Shown one piece after another: positions 2,691 through 22,682 of a stretch of DNA of 38,483 nucleotides (the first letter of the stretch is position 1; the number at the start of each line of letters is the position of its first letter). Source of the DNA: a virus; the IMG/VR virus record IMGVR_UViG_3300044551_000008, positions 1 through 38,483 of that record. One strand, 5' to 3'. The notes under the pieces were generated by a model. That model was not told the DNA's origin and did not search any database. It saw only the letters and a list, made by a program, of their open reading frames with translations. The translations under genes and the position numbers were made by a program.

Positions 2691-2904
2691 CAACAAATTT
2701 TACAACGTTATCAAATGGGCTGTTTTAACAGCCTTGCCAGCACTTAGTGTATTTATTGGAGTAATTGGCAAAGCCTACGGTTGGGGTGGAACTGATTTAG
2801 CTATCATTACTTTGAATGCATTCACGGTATTCTTGGGAACATTGGCTGGAGTAAGTGCGGTTAAATATAACAATCAGCCAAATGATACGGAGGAAAACAA
2901 ATGA
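2680..2904 (+). CDS. Holin (two TM segments)
   Basis: An internal ATG at 2680 follows AAGGAAGG. The 74-aa product has two hydrophobic helices and a charged C-terminus, and its 3' end overlaps the endolysin start by 4 nt (2901-2904). The longer 2638 start has no RBS. Confidence 0.7.
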
Positions 2905-4190
2905 AAAAAGTAATTAAAAAAGCTGCCATTGGAATGGTAGCTTTCTTTGTTGTCGCAGCAAGTGGACCAGTATTTGCGGCAGTCGGTGACCAAGGGGTGG
3001 ACTGGTCAAAATATAATGGAGATTATGGGAACTTTGGTTATGCTCATGATAAATTTGCTTTTAGCCAAATCGGAGGGACTTACGGTGGAACCTTTGTAGA
3101 CCAAGCCACCTATGAAACGCAAGTAGCTTCAGCAATTGCTCAAGGTAAACGAGCGCACACTTATATTTGGTACCAAGTCGGAGGCTCTCAAGAAGTAGCA
3201 AAAGCAGCACTTGATCGTTACTTACCAAGAATTAAAACACCAAAGAATTCTATTGTAGCTTTGGACTATGAAGGTGGAGCAAGTGGAAATAAACAGGCCA
3301 ATACTGATGCGATTCTTTACGGAATGCGTCGAGTAAAAGCGGCTGGATATACTCCAATGTATTATTCAGATAAGCCTTACACTTTGGCTCATGTCAATTA
3401 TAAGCAAATCATCAAAGAGTTTCCTAACTCATTATGGATTGCGGCTTATCCAAATTATGAAGTAACACCAGTTCCAAACTATAGCTTCTTCCCAAGTATG
3501 GACGGAATTTCAGTATTCCAGTTCACATCAACTTATGTTGCTGGCGGACTTGATGGAAATGTTGATTTAACAGGAATCACAGATAATGGATACGGAAAAC
3601 AGCAAGGCCAAGAAGTTAAACCCGATACTGCTACACCGGCCATTGAAAATGGTAAAGAAGCCAATGAAGTTAAAGGAAACGATGTAGAAGTTGGAATGAC
3701 GGTTAAAGTAAACTTTGGCGCTAAGAATTATGCCACAGGAGAAACAATTCCTCAATGGGTAAAAGGTCAACCACATAAAATCATCCAGAAGAATGGAGAT
3801 ACTGTCTTGCTTGATGGTATTATGAGCTGGTTATCCGTTCATGATGTGGAAACTATTGATGCTTCTACAAGCCAGCCAACGACACCCGCAAAAAGTTATA
3901 TTGTAAAACAAGGTGATACACTTAGTGGGATTGCTTCAAATTGGGGCACAAACTGGCAAGAATTAGCACGTCAGAACAATTTATCCAATCCTAATATGAT
4001 TTACTCTGGTCAGGTTATCCGCTTCACAGGCGGTCAATCTGGGGCTACAGCACGAACTTACACCGTACGCTCAGGCGATAATCTTTCATCAATTGCCAGT
4101 CGCTTGGGAACAACAGTTCAAAACTTAGTTTCAATGAATGGTATTTCAAACCCTAATTTGATTTATGCTGGTCAAACATTAAACTATTAA
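2901..4190 (+). CDS. lys: Endolysin: Sec-type signal peptide + GH25-like muramidase + SH3-like linker + 2x LysM
   Basis: The N-terminus [26 protein letters not shown]|AV looks like a signal peptide. [17 protein letters not shown] fits GH25. Two LysM repeats are present ([13 protein letters not shown].., [13 protein letters not shown]..). Confidence 0.85.
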
Positions 4191-4196
4191 AATTAA

Positions 4197-4221
4197 ACCC
4201 CGCTTCGGCGGGTATTTTTTT
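4197..4221 (+). terminator. Intrinsic terminator after the endolysin
   Basis: Stem CCCCGC/GCGGGG with a TTCG loop (4199-4212), followed by a T7 run. Confidence 0.8.
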
Positions 4222-4231
4222 CTAATATTTA

Positions 4232-4240
4232 TGCTATAAT
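4232..4240 (+). promoter_or_regulatory. Extended -10 promoter TGCTATAAT driving a leaderless operon
   Basis: TGnTATAAT is present. The -10 ends 9 nt before the ATG at 4250, and there is no SD between them. Confidence 0.55.
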
Positions 4241-4249
4241 AACTTTAGT

Positions 4250-4771
4250 ATGAAAGAGAAAACCACTTTATATCATGTTAATACACATGCTAAGGTTAAT
4301 AATTTAATTGATAATAATGAGTTGAATATCAGTGTACATGAATCGGATAATCAATATACAGGAACTGGTATGTATTTTTGGGATAATAAGGGGAATGCGA
4401 ATTATTGGTTAGGTGAGAAGCTGAAACACGAAAGTAAGAAGAACCTATGTCTTTTAGTTATATCTGCTGAATATTCTACAGATGAATTATTAGATTTGAT
4501 GGATTATGCTCAGGAAAAAGAGTATCAAAATATTTTATCAAGGTTGTCAAAAATAGGTGTGTTCAGTGGTAAAACTCTTGGAGAAAAAGTAGATTATTTA
4601 TGTGACTATTTAGGATGTAAGCTTGTTAGATCCTTGACATACTATCCAGGTACCCCGCAGACGAATTTATTAGAACAGAGTAGAGTAACAAACAAGTCTA
4701 AGGTTATCTATTGTATAAAGCCTGGTCATTATGATATAATCAAGTCAAAGCATAAGGAGGTGTTTCAGTGA
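4250..4771 (+). CDS. Hypothetical 173-aa protein; possible ADP-ribosyltransferase-fold (PARP/DarT/Tpt1/DUF3990-like) candidate toxin
   Basis: Long ORF in the moron slot. The N-terminal TLYHVNT, then ISVHES and GTGMYFWD, resemble the beta1/beta2 motifs of H-Y-E / H-H-h ART enzymes. This is motif reading only. Confidence 0.6.
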   Translation: MKEKTTLYHVNTHAKVNNLIDNNELNISVHESDNQYTGTGMYFWDNKGNANYWLGEKLKHESKKNLCLLVISAEYSTDELLDLMDYAQEKEYQNILSRLSKIGVFSGKTLGEKVDYLCDYLGCKLVRSLTYYPGTPQTNLLEQSRVTNKSKVIYCIKPGHYDIIKSKHKEVFQ

Positions 4772-5034
4772 TGGACATGTTAACTAAATTGAAAATGCTA
4801 TCTGCTCAGTTAGACAATCCAAGCTTTGCTAAGGAATTCTCTGAAGGTTTTGAAGAGTTCCTAGGCGATAAATATGTGAGTGAATTTGATAAGACTATAT
4901 CTTTTGAAGTCGTGTGTAATTTTGATGACACATTTTCAAATGATGAAGATGTAAAAAACAAGGCAGGCCTTTTTGAACCTAAGCCACTTGTATTTTCCAA
5001 CATGTTTGATATCGAGATTGTTGAAGCTGCTTGA
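4771..5034 (+). CDS. Small acidic protein (87 aa from ATG 4771); candidate antitoxin/partner
   Basis: AAGGAGG lies 10 nt upstream of ATG 4771. The start overlaps the upstream stop (GTGATG), which suggests translational coupling. The product is rich in D/E with a hydrophobic C-terminal tail LVFSNMFDIEIV. Confidence 0.6.
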   Translation: MDMLTKLKMLSAQLDNPSFAKEFSEGFEEFLGDKYVSEFDKTISFEVVCNFDDTFSNDEDVKNKAGLFEPKPLVFSNMFDIEIVEAA

Positions 5035-5057
5035 TATAAGAATTATAGAGAGAAAAA

Positions 5058-5471
5058 ATGGAAGCTCCAGTTATTGAATTTAAAAGTTATGAAATAAAAA
5101 AAATAAATTATGTTCTTCTTACAGAAGAGGAAGGTGAAAAAGCCAAAATGAAGTTTTTGGTATCGGGCGCTTTATCTGATGATGCAGAAGCTGGCATAGT
5201 AACATTAGACATAAGTCTTCCGCAAAAAGAACAGAAGAGAAAAATCGACGTTATTCTTTCTGGATACTTTAGATTCAGAGAAGATTTGACATCAAACGAA
5301 GAAAAACATCAATATTTAAGCGTTAATGGGACTGCTATCTTGTTGCCTTACCTTAGAGCGACAGTATCAATGATATCAGTGTTAGATAAAAATGAAGCAA
5401 TAGTTTTTCCAACATTGAATATTGCAGAACTCATGAAAAAGTCTAAAGAAAATGGTGAAGATGAAAATTAG
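5058..5471 (+). CDS. SecB-like chaperone (137 aa)
   Basis: VNGTAILLPYLRATVSMISVL..FPTLNIAELM aligns by eye with the SecB hallmark [35 protein letters not shown]. The tail is acidic, as in SecB. Confidence 0.6.
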   Translation: MEAPVIEFKSYEIKKINYVLLTEEEGEKAKMKFLVSGALSDDAEAGIVTLDISLPQKEQKRKIDVILSGYFRFREDLTSNEEKHQYLSVNGTAILLPYLRATVSMISVLDKNEAIVFPTLNIAELMKKSKENGEDEN

Positions 5472-5477
5472 ATAATT

Positions 5478-5500
5478 CGCCCTCCGGGGCGTTTTTCTTT
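5478..5500 (+). terminator. Intrinsic terminator of the three-gene operon
   Basis: Stem CGCCC/GGGCG with a TCCG loop (5478-5491), then TTTTTCTTT. Confidence 0.8.
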
Positions 5501-5517
5501 GTACTCGTTAGGAAGTT

Positions 5518-5569
5518 TGCTATAATTAAACTTCTAACACTGATCCCCCTTAATTGGGGGTCTTTTTTT
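5518..5569 (+). ncRNA. Mini-cassette 1: promoter + ~37-nt hairpin RNA + terminator (candidate sRNA)
   Basis: TGCTATAAT at 5518-5526. Hairpin at 5542-5562 (CCCCC/GGGGG, loop TTAATT). T7 run at 5563-5569. No ORF. Confidence 0.4.
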
Positions 5570-5603
5570 GTTAACAAATGTTACTTCGTCATTTTATTGA
5601 TGT

Positions 5604-5705
5604 TGTTATAATAATGGAATCATGAATGCTATTCCAATTACAAATACAAATAGCTAAGTGTTTATGAAGAGATAAAGCGCCCTTTTCCAAAGCGAGGGCG
5701 TTTTT
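5604..5705 (+). ncRNA. Mini-cassette 2 (candidate ~85-nt sRNA)
   Basis: TGTTATAAT at 5604-5612. Internal hairpin TGGAAT/ATTCCA at 5615-5636. Terminator CGCCC..GGGCG at 5678-5700 plus T5. Confidence 0.4.
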
Positions 5706-5727
5706 CTTTACAACGGAAACAGTAAAT

Positions 5728-5806
5728 TGTATAATAATTTTATCCTTTTACATAAGGTTATAAATAACTCCGAGAACATCGTTTTGACTAAGTGACGGTG
5801 TTTTTT
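5728..5806 (+). ncRNA. Mini-cassette 3 (candidate ~65-nt sRNA)
   Basis: TTGTATAAT with TATAAT at 5730-5735. Hairpin at 5741-5760. Terminator stem at 5775-5802 plus T6. Confidence 0.4.
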
Positions 5807-5831
5807 ATTTGAAAACGAATACAAAAAGTAG

Positions 5832-5888
5832 TATAATGAATTCATCTTACCTATATAAGATAACGTCTGCCCTTAAACAGGGCTTTTT
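5832..5888 (+). ncRNA. Mini-cassette 4 (candidate ~45-nt sRNA)
   Basis: TATAAT at 5832-5837. Perfect hairpin ATCTTA/TAAGAT at 5844-5861. GCCC/GGGC hairpin at 5869-5883 plus T5. Confidence 0.35.
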
Positions 5889-5933
5889 GTTCTAGTTAAG
5901 GAAGTAGATATATACTATATTTACCCAAAAATA

Positions 5934-5991
5934 TATAATTTTTCATAAAGTTTACTCCGAGCGTCCCTCTCCTAACTGGGGCGATTTTTTT
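5934..5991 (+). ncRNA. Mini-cassette 5 (candidate sRNA; weakest promoter)
   Basis: TATAAT at 5934-5939 without a TG. Terminator at 5962-5983 plus T7. It shares ACTCCGAG before its terminator with cassette 3. Confidence 0.3.
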
Positions 5992-5992
5992 A

Positions 5993-6070
5993 TGCTATAA
6001 TATAGTCGGGATGTTTGTGAGATTTCATCCTATTCCTAGAGTCAAGCCATTCTTCGGAGTGGCTTTTTTT
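5993..6070 (+). ncRNA. Mini-cassette 6 (candidate ~63-nt sRNA)
   Basis: TGCTATAAT at 5993-6001. Hairpin GGATG/CATCC at 6009-6030. Terminator at 6045-6064 with a C(UUCG)G tetraloop plus T7. Confidence 0.4.
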
Positions 6071-6085
6071 ATTTATTAAAAAAGT

Positions 6086-6204
6086 TGTATAATAGTTTTA
6101 GTGGATGAGAAAAACATTCATTTACAAACACTTGATAATCTGCAGTTCCGTCCACATATATCTAATATAATAATCAAGATATGTGCTGCAGATTGTCATA
6201 TTTT
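6086..6204 (+). ncRNA. Mini-cassette 7: promoter + leader containing a long inverted repeat, reading into the tRNA-like element
   Basis: TGTATAAT at 6086-6093. A 12-bp inverted repeat lies at 6134-6145/6186-6197. There is no strong terminator before 6205. Confidence 0.35.
6134..6197. repeat. Inverted repeat GATAATCTGCAG ... CTGCAGATTGTC with inner CACATAT/ATATGTG arms
   Basis: 12 bp pair (one G-T) around a 40-nt interior that has a second 7-bp stem. The loop contains TATAAT (6166-6171). Confidence 0.75.
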
Positions 6205-6265
6205 GGTTCTTTAGCTCAGTTGGTAGCTAACCGTTCGGTCGCTGGTTCGAGTCCAGCAAGAACCA
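6205..6265 (+). ncRNA. tRNA-like element (61 nt) with perfect acceptor stem and T-arm, partial D-arm, and no anticodon arm
   Basis: GGTTCTT/AAGAACC forms a 7-bp acceptor stem. TAGCTCAGTTGGTAG is a D-arm consensus. GCTGG-TTCGAGT-CCAGC is a T-arm. Only about 11 nt (ACC-GUUC-GGU mini-hairpin) stand where 22-23 nt would be expected. Confidence 0.7.
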
Positions 6266-6278
6266 TAAATAAAATGTA

Positions 6279-6312
6279 TATAATAGTAGAAACTCCTTAA
6301 AAGGAGTTTTTT
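6279..6312 (+). terminator. Mini-cassette 8 / terminator hairpin abutting attP
   Basis: TATAAT at 6279-6284, then stem AACTCCTT/AAGGAGTT at 6291-6308 plus a T run. The resulting transcript would be little more than the hairpin. Confidence 0.5.
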
Positions 6313-6351
6313 AGTTACCTTAATTGAAATAAACGAAATAAAAACTCGCAA
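6296..6351. other. attP: attP of the TP901-1 serine integrase (core TCAATTAAGGTAA on the - strand at 6315-6327)
   Basis: AAAGGAGTTTTTTAGTTACCTTAATTGAAATAAACGAAATAAAAACTCGC matches my recollection of the minimal TP901-1 attP. It lies immediately 3' of int. Confidence 0.8.
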
Positions 6352-7809
6352 TTAAGCGAGTTGGAATTTAAATATGATATCTACATTATCAGCAGTAACA
6401 TCAACCTTTGATACAAGGTTGTTGACTATTTTCTTTTTATTATCATATGATAGTTCATTAATCGGAATTGAGCCCAACTGAGTTTTAACTAACTCAAAAA
6501 CATCAGTAGAGTCATTAAATTTATTTTCGCTAATCTTAGCTTTAAGCAGCTTTTTCTCAGCCTGAAGGGAATCAGTACGATCTTTCAACTCATCCATAGT
6601 GATAAAATCATTTAGGTACAAATCAGAGTTCTTTTGTATTTTTTTATCGATCTGTGAAATTTGCTTTTTAAATGACGAAGTATTAATAGTAGGTTGGTTG
6701 TTGCCATTGATAATTTTCAATAAGGAGTCATTATTTTCTTGAAATCCAATCAGGTTGTCAATAACAGTATTTTCTAAATTACTTAAATCATAAGTTCCTG
6801 AATCACACTTTTTATTGTCATTATATACTGTAATTCCTTTTGTTTTTCGAGGAAATCTATTTGCACAGTGATATTTCATAGTGCGGCTTCCATCTTTTCT
6901 TTTGTGGCCAAGAACAATTTTTAAAGGTGCTCCACAGTAACCGCACCTTGCCATCCCTGATAACATATATTTGGCTTGGAAAGGTCTAGGATTGTTGTTT
7001 CTTTCATAAGTCTGCTGTTGTCTTTCTTCTAGCTCTTTTTGAACTTTTAAATAAGTCTCATAAGGGATAATTGGTTTGTGCATACCTTCAAATAGGCTGT
7101 CCTTAAATTTGATATAACCACAGTAAACTGGATTATCAAGTGTTTGTCTTAGGGTACGATAAGACCATGGTATATCTTTACCGATGTGTCCAGCTTCATT
7201 GAGTTTATCTCTTAATTTTGTAAGTGATATTCCTGATAAATAATCAGTGAATATTTGTTCAACTATTGTAGCTTGTAAAGGAACAATTTCTAATATACCT
7301 GTCTTTCTGTTGTGGTAATACCCAAAAGCTGTCTTAGTCCACATCATAGACTTACCAGATTTCGCTCGCCCTAGTTTACCCATAGTCATGCGTTCTTTTA
7401 TATTCTCTCTTTCAAACTCATTAATTGCAGAAAGAATAGTGAGAAACAAGCTACCCATAGCAGAAGAAGTATCAATACTTTCATTAAGCGAGATAAAGTC
7501 TATTTTATTTTTTTTGAACACATCCTTAACAAGATAAAGAGTATCTCTTACACTACGGGAAAGGCGGTCTAGCTTATATACAAGAACTGTATCAAAAGCT
7601 TTATTCTCGATATCGTTGGTTAATCTTTGCATTGCTGGGCGTTCAAGTTTGGCCCCTGAAAAACCAGCATCAGTATAAGTATCAGATACTTGCCACCCCA
7701 TTGCTTCAGCATATTTTGTTAAACGGTCAATTTGCTCATCAATTGAGAACCCTTCCTCTGCTTGGTTAGTAGTGGATACTCGTGTATAGATTGCTACTTT
7801 CTTAGTCAT
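6352..7809 (-). CDS. int: Large serine recombinase (integrase), TP901-1 type, 485 aa
   Basis: MTKKVAIYTRVSTTNQAEEGFSIDEQ... contains the resolvase catalytic Ser motif. The length and sequence match the recalled TP901-1 Int. A C-terminal zinc ribbon (CGYCGAP..) and a coiled coil are present. Confidence 0.93.
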   Translation of the reverse strand: MTKKVAIYTRVSTTNQAEEGFSIDEQIDRLTKYAEAMGWQVSDTYTDAGFSGAKLERPAMQRLTNDIENKAFDTVLVYKLDRLSRSVRDTLYLVKDVFKKNKIDFISLNESIDTSSAMGSLFLTILSAINEFERENIKERMTMGKLGRAKSGKSMMWTKTAFGYYHNRKTGILEIVPLQATIVEQIFTDYLSGISLTKLRDKLNEAGHIGKDIPWSYRTLRQTLDNPVYCGYIKFKDSLFEGMHKPIIPYETYLKVQKELEERQQQTYERNNNPRPFQAKYMLSGMARCGYCGAPLKIVLGHKRKDGSRTMKYHCANRFPRKTKGITVYNDNKKCDSGTYDLSNLENTVIDNLIGFQENNDSLLKIINGNNQPTINTSSFKKQISQIDKKIQKNSDLYLNDFITMDELKDRTDSLQAEKKLLKAKISENKFNDSTDVFELVKTQLGSIPINELSYDNKKKIVNNLVSKVDVTADNVDIIFKFQLA

Positions 7810-22607: not shown

Positions 22608-22682
22608 GTGGCTGCATGGTCAAGGGGTTAAGATACTGCACTTTTAGTGCAGAGGCGTGAGTTCGAATCTCACTCAGTCACA
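22608..22682 (+). tRNA. tRNA-Lys(UUU)-like gene with non-canonical junctions
   Basis: 7-bp acceptor stem GTGGCTG/CAGTCAC (one G-T). Anticodon arm CTGCA-CTTTTAG-TGCAG. T-arm GTGAG-TTCGAAT-CTCAC. GG is present in the D-loop. There is one extra nt at the T-stem/acceptor junction and the D-stem is weak. Confidence 0.55.

Follow-up and report, generated by a model that had tools for sequence, protein, structure and literature searches.

The window analyzed here, positions 1 to 38,483 (38,483 nucleotides [nt]) of IMG/VR virus record IMGVR_UViG_3300044551_000008, represents a mosaic temperate phage of the Lactococcus P335 group. In it, 0.88 kb without long open reading frames (ORFs) separates an accessory operon of three genes from the integrase gene, and this interval carries a head-to-tail series of short promoter-terminator units, designated U1 to U7 and preceded by the operon terminator U0, which is the subject of this report (Table 1). 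On balance, we favor reading this 0.8-kb stretch as a modular array of tiny autonomous noncoding RNA units that are built like morons. The right boundary of the array is the attachment site of the phage, attP, where 6288-6420 is 100% identical to the TP901-1 record X85213; this identity to a characterized attP, including its core, together with the large serine recombinase gene beside it, places the site in the TP901-1 type. Since the feature labeled "core, attP" in that record is intact in the window, the sequence is the excised form of the phage. The first-pass annotation of this DNA had placed the array at the prophage end after integration, reading outward, and mapping of attP agrees with this, putting it at the attR end.

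Table 1. Features of the array and its surroundings, with the state of the -10 hexamer among unique homologs of each unit
Feature	Position	Strand	Basis or detail	-10 and related sites among unique homologs
Endolysin gene	2901-4190	+	Upstream neighbor of the accessory operon	
Three-gene accessory operon	4250-5471	+	Left of the array	
U0, terminator of the upstream three-gene (PD-T4-9/CmdTAC-like) operon; conserved left array boundary	5478-5499	+	Strict terminator scan	
U1	5507-5569	+	Extended -10 TGCTATAAT at 5518-5526	TATAAT 15/15; TGn 15/15
U2	5604-5706	+	Promoter TGTTATAAT at 5604-5612	TATAAT 22/23; identity to window 0.43 in spacer, 0.49 in +1 to +12
U3	5707-5808	+	TTTACA-17-TATAAT at 5707-5735; 11/12 promoter consensus	TATAAT 8/9
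U4	5809-5890	+	TTGAAA-17-TATAAT at 5809-5837; 11/12 promoter consensus; strict terminator	TATAAT 2/8; TAGAAT 6/8; -35 TTGAAA 8/8
U5	5911-5991	+	TATAAT 5934-5939; ancestral -10 position 5911-5916 reads TATACT in window	TATAAT at window site 8/25; at site 23 nt upstream 15/25 (window TATACT there)
U6	5993-6072	+	Extended -10 TGCTATAAT at 5993-6001	TATAAT 27/29; TGn 29/29
U7 promoter TGTATAAT (6086-6093) and 105-nt leader	6086-6204	+	Small hairpin 6101-6125, long hairpin 6133-6198	TATAAT 28/31
tRNA-like element, 61 nt	6205-6265	+	Rfam RF00005, 37.8 bits vs gathering 29	
Hairpin and T-run, first described as unit 8	6291-6314 (hairpin 6291-6308)	+	Fold; within TP901-1 homology	
attP core, TP901-1-type serine integrase; right array boundary	6322-6327 (about)		"core, attP" feature of X85213 transferred by alignment	
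Large serine recombinase (integrase) gene, 485 aa	6352-7809	-	Domains Resolvase, Recombinase, Zn_ribbon_recom	

Eight promoter boxes had been described in the array, and all are present, with TATAAT at 5521, 5607, 5730, 5832, 5934, 5996, 6088, and 6279; a ninth + strand copy, absent from that earlier list, lies at 6166. In the 841 nt from 5472 to 6312, TATAAT thus occurs 9 times on the + strand and never on the - strand, against 1.15 ± 1.04 (maximum 5) in 500 dinucleotide-preserving shuffles of the same stretch, and these 841 nt account for 9 of the 22 + strand copies in the entire window. Paired -35 and -10 hexamers near consensus (11/12) are found in U3 and U4, and TGnTATAAT is found in U1, U2, and U6. 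Terminator-like sites are similarly concentrated, with 11 between 4000 and 8000 where 1.8 ± 1.3 would be expected. A hairpin and T-run do follow every listed box, as had been claimed, but a strict scan accepted only those at 5542, 5869, and 6044, along with the operon terminator at 5478, and those of units 2, 3, 5, and 8 emerge under relaxed rules only, having loops of 9 to 12 nt or few G-C pairs.

None of the units contains an ORF preceded by a Shine-Dalgarno (SD) sequence on the + strand, in keeping with the original description. Two SD-preceded mini-ORFs of 12 and 16 aa do lie on the - strand of the array; neither is conserved, and the frame of the longer is lost by a 1-nt indel in phage D6890. 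These being the sole candidates for the peptide of a type I toxin-antitoxin system, we reject that assignment. Nor are the units repeats of one another, since they have in common only short promoter and terminator strings, such as the ACTCCGAG that had been noted in units 3 and 5 and is found in both. Tandem Repeats Finder reports no tandem repeats in the array, and the direct repeats are of at most 25 nt and all belong to promoters or terminators. A CRISPR array or a ToxI/antiQ repeat array, which the locus resembles as a noncoding RNA locus in a phage or defense context, can be ruled out because there is no repeated unit of any period.

The RNAs predicted for U1 to U6 are short. Judged from the folds, U1 would yield about 35 nt, made up of a 9-nt 5′ tail, a terminator at 5542-5562, and a T-run, and U2 about 88 nt (5619-5706), which is poor in G and unstructured toward the 5′ end and then forms a terminator at 5674-5704. 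The predicted U3 RNA of about 67 nt has a small hairpin at 5744-5757, then ACUCCGAG, and a terminator at 5772-5805, and that of U4, about 47 nt, has a hairpin at 5844-5861, a terminator at 5869-5883, and a T-run. U5 would give about 45 nt, starting with AAAGUUUACUCCGAG and passing into a terminator at 5962-5983 with the 10-nt loop UCUCCUAACU, and U6 about 65 nt, with a 5′ hairpin at 6008-6031, a terminator at 6044-6065, and a T-run. A short stable hairpin ahead of the terminator, which had been ascribed to every unit, is missing from units 1, 5, and 8, where the promoter is followed by essentially the terminator hairpin alone. The -10 of U1 sits between inverted-repeat arms at 5507-5518 and 5527-5538 (8 to 11 bp; GTTAGGAAGTTT ... 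AAACTTCTAAC), an operator-like arrangement of which an equivalent is retained in related phages.

Comparison with over 50 related loci, drawn from phages in GenBank and from IMG/VR, revealed that the subset and order of units is particular to each phage. Homology starts cluster at unit borders (5477, 5559-64, 5695-6, 5879, 5991, 6088, and 6202), homology ends cluster as well (5500, 5742-5, 5990, 6084, and 6268-74), and the terminator tails at 5487-5500 and 5696-5709, which share the same 14 nt, fit the junction of U0 to U3 in bIL312, CHPC1175, and the locus L046. U0 itself is found as 23 to 29 nt, 96% to 100% identical, behind differing ORFs (145 to 319 aa) in bIL311, D6890, 38502, TP712, and D4840, and as a 35-nt match of 91% identity in bIL312, making six phages with U0 after ORFs in all. 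Directly 3′ of the tRNA or tRNA-like element of U7 the loci switch among at least 7 modules of attachment site and integrase (att/int), and the published attR of phiKW2 (PMC3757294) corresponds to GGGGCA repeats that, in loci with this type of att, immediately follow the tRNA-like element on its 3′ side. The most widespread cassette is U5, present in 37 of 52 regions; U1 has homologs in at least 14 loci, U3 is 98% to 100% identical in bIL311, bIL312, ul36.t1, and CHPC1175, and the GenBank record of TP712 carries U1, U2, U5, U6, and U7. Further homologs occur in BK5-T, where the annotation gives two putative terminators only, and in Tuc2009, phiLC3, 4268, phi31, Q33, and the L. garvieae phage PLgT-1. 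Additional cassettes organized in this way are carried by other P335 phages, and a crude screen for strict TATAAT sorted the payloads into 32 clusters, some on the - strand, of which at least 12 recur in at least 2 loci or occur in the window. Cassettes on the - strand, with a TTGACA promoter, about 100 nt, and a terminator, are seen in L003 (1815-2000), L007 (1960-2080), L049 (3940-4110), and L068 (3650-3810), and their promoter regions hold the palindrome (G)ACAATTGTC, a possible operator that is absent from the window.

Several of these cassettes are overlain by small coding sequences (CDSs) in GenBank (L007 1796-1978, L008 1418-1654, L070 885-1070, L011 1755-1892, and L003 1563-2011); these CDSs are bIL312 orf26, TP712 orf58, Tuc2009 orf58, proPhi1 ORF62 ("DNA-methylase"), and two hypothetical proteins of D7138. 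They span promoters, terminators, or the tRNA-like element and are probably spurious. In the region of bIL312 orf26, a TTGACA-17-TATAAT promoter precedes about 110 nt and a terminator like that of U6, and because the annotated ORF begins upstream of the -35, it is probably not a gene.

Among unique homologs, the -10 hexamers are near-invariant against diverging flanks. In U5, the distribution of -10 sites between 2 positions is, on sequence grounds, promoter turnover. The terminators have changed in ways that keep their pairing. In the U6 stem, CG has become UG in 9 sequences, AU has become GU in 6 and GC in 2, and UG has become CG in 9, with four broken cells only, each in one sequence; C-to-U wobble changes and one compensatory pair maintain the U2 stem, and in L068, a compensatory change from C-G to U-A in the U5 stem leaves the 10-nt loop unaltered. 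Since C-to-U changes opposite G and A-to-G changes opposite U would produce A.C mismatches in a - strand RNA, pairing is preserved specifically in the + strand RNA. Conservation of hairpins, which had been proposed as a test of the units, extends beyond the terminators to the 5′ hairpin of U6, whose stem is retained while its loop varies, and to the leader hairpin of U7. Some single-stranded stretches are also conserved, namely the 5′ parts of U2 and U5 and the loop of U5, which is unaltered in 22 of 25 unique homologs. The earlier suggestion that relatives be checked for intact ORFs in place of the payloads was followed as well, and there are none in the homologous loci.

The seventh unit includes a feature that the first-pass annotation overlooked, a 61-nt transfer RNA (tRNA)-like element behind the promoter and structured leader. 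The leader has a minimum free energy of -31.3 kcal/mol (z -6.0), its outer stem is kept in divergent variants by double changes at 4 pairs, which come from one or two divergent sequences, and the extra TATAAT at 6166 is located in the loop of its long hairpin. The 61-nt element scores above the gathering threshold of RF00005 and folds as a mini-cloverleaf in which the acceptor stem has 7 bp, the D and T arms are present, and a 3-bp stub capped by a GUUC loop takes the place of the anticodon arm, but the 11 anticodon-arm positions of the model have shrunk to 1, leaving no 7-nt loop with an anticodon, and ARAGORN calls no tRNA there. Lacking this arm, the element is a tRNA-like relic rather than a tRNA. 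At the homologous position, D6890 has an annotated, intact 74-nt tRNA-Met(CAT) with promoter and 105-nt leader as in the window. Relative to it, the window copy has lost CAG from the D loop and CGGCTCATAA, the latter deletion falling between TAAC direct repeats and removing the anticodon loop. The element in the window is thus probably a pseudogene relic of a phage tRNA(CAU) after two small deletions. A search of all Rfam families with cmscan, at gathering thresholds and at E ≤ 10, returned the tRNA model alone for the array, the rest being noise far below thresholds, so a Y-RNA-like tRNA mimic is rejected.

We collected 53 copies of the element, most by a 3′-half search pattern that biases their apparent conservation. 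About 37 are exactly the 61-nt form (35 with an intact 5′ end; three of the rest have a 5′-end substitution), and 13 are intact 74-nt genes, about nine of which stand behind a U7-type leader or beside an att module; the intact form is found in D6890 and about 8 other phage loci. A scan of IMG/VR with the leader, run to offset the bias of the 3′ pattern, added one more usable locus and four chance matches. The same tRNA is truncated in other ways in L037, L019, and L050, and bIL312 and L047 have a second intact type, whose anticodon stem is compensatory (CCCCG/CGGGG). In L019 (about 4190-4232) and L050 (- strand, about 2590-2627), only the 3′ half of the tRNA is present, from the anticodon loop onward, directly abutting an upstream ORF and followed by an att module, which resembles a classical tRNA-3′-half attP. 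One scan of genome contigs for the 74-nt tRNA found it in a single contig of a metagenome-assembled genome, itself a P335-like array, and found no chromosomal copy in the species representatives; a host origin of the tRNA receives no support from that scan. We also note that 17 nt of the U7 leader (ACAAACACTTGATAATC; 6124-6140, +) equal the integrase coding strand at 7131-7147 (-, codons QTLDN), forming an inverted repeat across attP (blastn-short E 0.002); phages with integrases of other types can carry this leader variant too.

If the array is what we take it to be, each of U1 to U6 would be driven by a promoter of the sigma-70 type, in most cases with a TG-extended -10, and make an RNA of 35 to 90 nt ending at an intrinsic terminator, and U7, of the same build, would express a structured leader and a phage tRNA(CAU), here decayed to 61 nt. 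From the housekeeping consensus of the promoters and the attR-end position after integration, we infer that these RNAs would be made constitutively in the lysogen. The discrete products might then act in trans by base pairing through exposed C/U-rich segments, for example, ACUCC or the conserved UCUCCU loop of U5, although this is a tentative suggestion, and the mRNAs that they target would be those of the host or of competing phages rather than the phage's own translation start regions. P335 phages would acquire, lose, and trade units through recombination at the common promoter and terminator strings, a process of which the clustered borders give a partial record. That a slot of this array can hold an RNA gene is demonstrated by the intact tRNA in D6890 and others. 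The original proposal of a candidate small RNA (sRNA) battery of about eight autonomous units is supported in part. In its favor are relatives without payload ORFs, some conserved structure outside the terminators, -10 boxes kept amid diverging flanks, and terminator changes that maintain + strand pairing; it fails for units 7 and 8 and for the 5′ hairpin of U2.

A number of observations weigh against this reading. Unit 7 is a degenerate tRNA cassette rather than an sRNA hairpin. Unit 8 does not stand on its own, for its TATAAT at 6279 is missing from relatives that share the attP type (L023, L040, L049, and L058) and its hairpin falls inside the TP901-1 homology, so that it is probably the terminator of U7 in the attP flank. 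Three predicted RNAs, those of U1, U5, and the last hairpin, are only 25 to 45 nt long and comprise little beyond a terminator, the 5′ hairpin of U2 is not conserved among homologs, and none of U1 to U6 is matched by any Rfam family. The covariation lies nearly all in terminators, where every rival predicts it too. Payload 5′ parts and terminator loops do speak for the array in being conserved no less than promoter spacers (majority fraction 0.92 and 0.98, with promoter spacers at 0.87), but homologs as little diverged as these (0.87 to 0.98) give such contrasts limited power. The best duplexes of the units with 61 translation start regions of this phage yielded no target beyond a shuffled null, and perfect complementarity of at least 12 nt is at chance level in the window, apart from two matches in the ORF at 5058-5471. 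In these, the sense strand of this 137-aa ORF (5165-5177 and 5375-5386) has perfect complements in the 5′ 12 nt of U1 and in 13 nt of U2, 2 of about 14 window sites of at least 12 nt; they are probably a coincidence, given how often U1 and U2 occur in phages that lack the ORF. The one piece of external support is that differential RNA sequencing of L. lactis MG1363, which carries prophage t712 (PMC4829306, PMC3757294), found 28 uncharacterized sRNAs between the genes of its prophages (van der Meulen et al. 2016, PMC4829306), although these could not be mapped to units of the array.

It is unlikely, in our judgment, that the units are instead empty expression slots or moron scars, shells of promoter and terminator that remain from deleted coding payloads or that receive inserting morons, and whose RNAs, if any, have no function of their own. 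The neighboring operon at 4250-5471 occupies a slot of this kind, with a promoter string TTTATGCTATAATA identical to that of U6 and its end in U0, and U0 stands behind different ORFs in different phages; U1 and U5 have almost nothing between promoter and terminator, and microhomology deletions are frequent here, as L037, L019, L050, and the 61-nt tRNA relic attest. Yet no relative has an ORF, or a recognizable remnant of one, for any payload, neutral scars need neither the retention of -10s nor their replacement as in U5, and conservation extends to the 5′ parts of payloads, the loops of terminators, and the hairpin of U6. We consider it quite unlikely that the array is a set of recombination linkers combined with a terminator stack, in which the common strings provide homology for exchanging accessory and integration modules and the serial terminators stop late-operon read-through across attP and antisense into the convergent integrase gene. 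Breakpoints do cluster at unit borders, at least 7 att/int modules begin directly after the tRNA(-like) 3′ end, where the phiKW2 attR also fits, and eight + strand terminators lie within 0.85 kb upstream of the - strand integrase. A single strong terminator would suffice for insulation, however, and neither linkers nor insulation need seven conserved promoters or stems preserved specifically in the + strand; such a role is also compatible with sRNA genes rather than exclusive of them. Both explanations, neither of which fully excludes sRNA genes, account for the borders and terminators and leave out the retention or replacement of -10s and the conservation of payloads and loops.

A separate question is whether the 61-nt element might be functional as it is, cut by RNase P and RNase Z, perhaps with CCA, so as to release the structured leader or to serve, uncharged, as an acceptor/T-arm decoy that draws off host enzymes or toxins directed at tRNA. 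We think this somewhat unlikely. The deleted form is the majority one, it is 97% to 100% identical across phages with differing leaders and att modules, its acceptor and T arms are perfect within a mini-cloverleaf fold, and the phages that carry it still conserve promoter and leader. Set against this are the independent truncations of the same tRNA in L037, L019, and L050, the acceptor-stem mismatches of some copies (G1 to A, G2 to A), the mixing of intact and deleted forms in every att type, as for a neutral allele spread by recombination, and the bias toward apparent conservation that comes with the search pattern. A broader version of the reading we favor would have P335 phages keep a shared "cassette library" of functional tiny RNA genes at the attR end, with the mini-tRNA as a selected product, and this we hold doubtful. 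If it were true, the locus would be an RNA counterpart of moron and defense islands, with units serving as regulators, decoys, or anti-phage antisense RNAs that are recombined combinatorially via common joints, and the mini-tRNA would be a processing handle or an acceptor-stem decoy.

The closest analogy to the modular RNA array that we propose is with morons, promoter-gene-terminator units expressed from the prophage, a concept that arose from HK97/HK022 genomics. Like morons, the units have their own predicted promoter and terminator, lie in an accessory region between phage modules (lysis genes and att), and are variably present, as the conserved -10s, the terminators, and the mosaicism indicate, and they have the same promoter and terminator strings as the neighboring coding moron. 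Unlike them, they have payloads of 9 to 105 nt with no SD-preceded ORF on the + strand and no ORF in homologous slots, and seven follow one another head to tail within 0.8 kb. Listeria LhrC1-4 and similar tandem sRNA genes, and sRNAs of enterobacterial prophages such as DicF, IsrK, and AgvB/AsxR, likewise have their own promoters and terminators, and some are arranged head to tail or borne by prophages; they also expose C/U-rich motifs that could pair with Shine-Dalgarno regions. The copies of LhrC are paralogs, however, whereas the units of the array are unrelated in sequence and have no Rfam match. The prophage sRNAs of MG1363 are similar in host genus and phage group, t712/TP712 having homologs of U1, U2, U5, U6, and U7, but no array, modular shuffling, or tRNA relic is described in that paper (PMC4829306). 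Phage tRNA genes, including those of tRNA-dependent lysogeny (PMC10865867) and the "predicted unspecified tRNA" marked beside attR in the phiKW2 prophage map and its legend (PMC3757294), resemble U7, in that many P335 phages have a tRNA(CAU) with its own promoter directly next to att, and the window copy differs by the deletion of its anticodon loop. Whether a copy is intact or deleted does not follow the type of integrase, which leaves a general role in complementing a disrupted host tRNA unsupported, and tRNA-dependent lysogeny is likewise unsupported, the two forms being mixed across att types.

Prophage-borne sRNAs, morons, bulk-reported sRNAs in lactococcal prophage intergenic regions, and the tRNA of the phiKW2 map are thus already known, and we did not find described in the literature a head-to-tail array of unrelated mini-cassettes, its shuffling across P335 phages, or a widespread anticodon-less tRNA derivative. 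If the units are real sRNA genes, then a layer of lysogen-expressed RNA has gone unrecognized in the temperate dairy phages of the best-studied group, where it adjoins prophage defense cargo and is exchanged as cassettes. This would provide short, concrete candidates for the uncharacterized prophage sRNAs of MG1363 and would correct spurious small-protein annotations such as bIL312 orf26, TP712 orf58, Tuc2009 orf58, and proPhi1 ORF62. The conserved joints mark points at which accessory and integration modules are swapped, which bears on the origin of new lytic P335 variants in starter cultures.

The operon to the left of the array resembles the toxin-antitoxin-chaperone anti-phage system PD-T4-9 (CmdTAC), 2 names that are given together in PMC9519451. 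PADLOC matches its 173-aa protein to PD-T4-9_A (E 1.8e-6) and its 137-aa protein to PD-T4-9_C (E 2e-19) and has no match for the 88-aa protein in the middle. As the TGCTATAAT of the operon ends 9 nt before the ATG, its mRNA may be leaderless. Elsewhere in the window, an intact phage tRNA-Lys(UUU) lies on the + strand at 22608-22682, where ARAGORN and Rfam agree.

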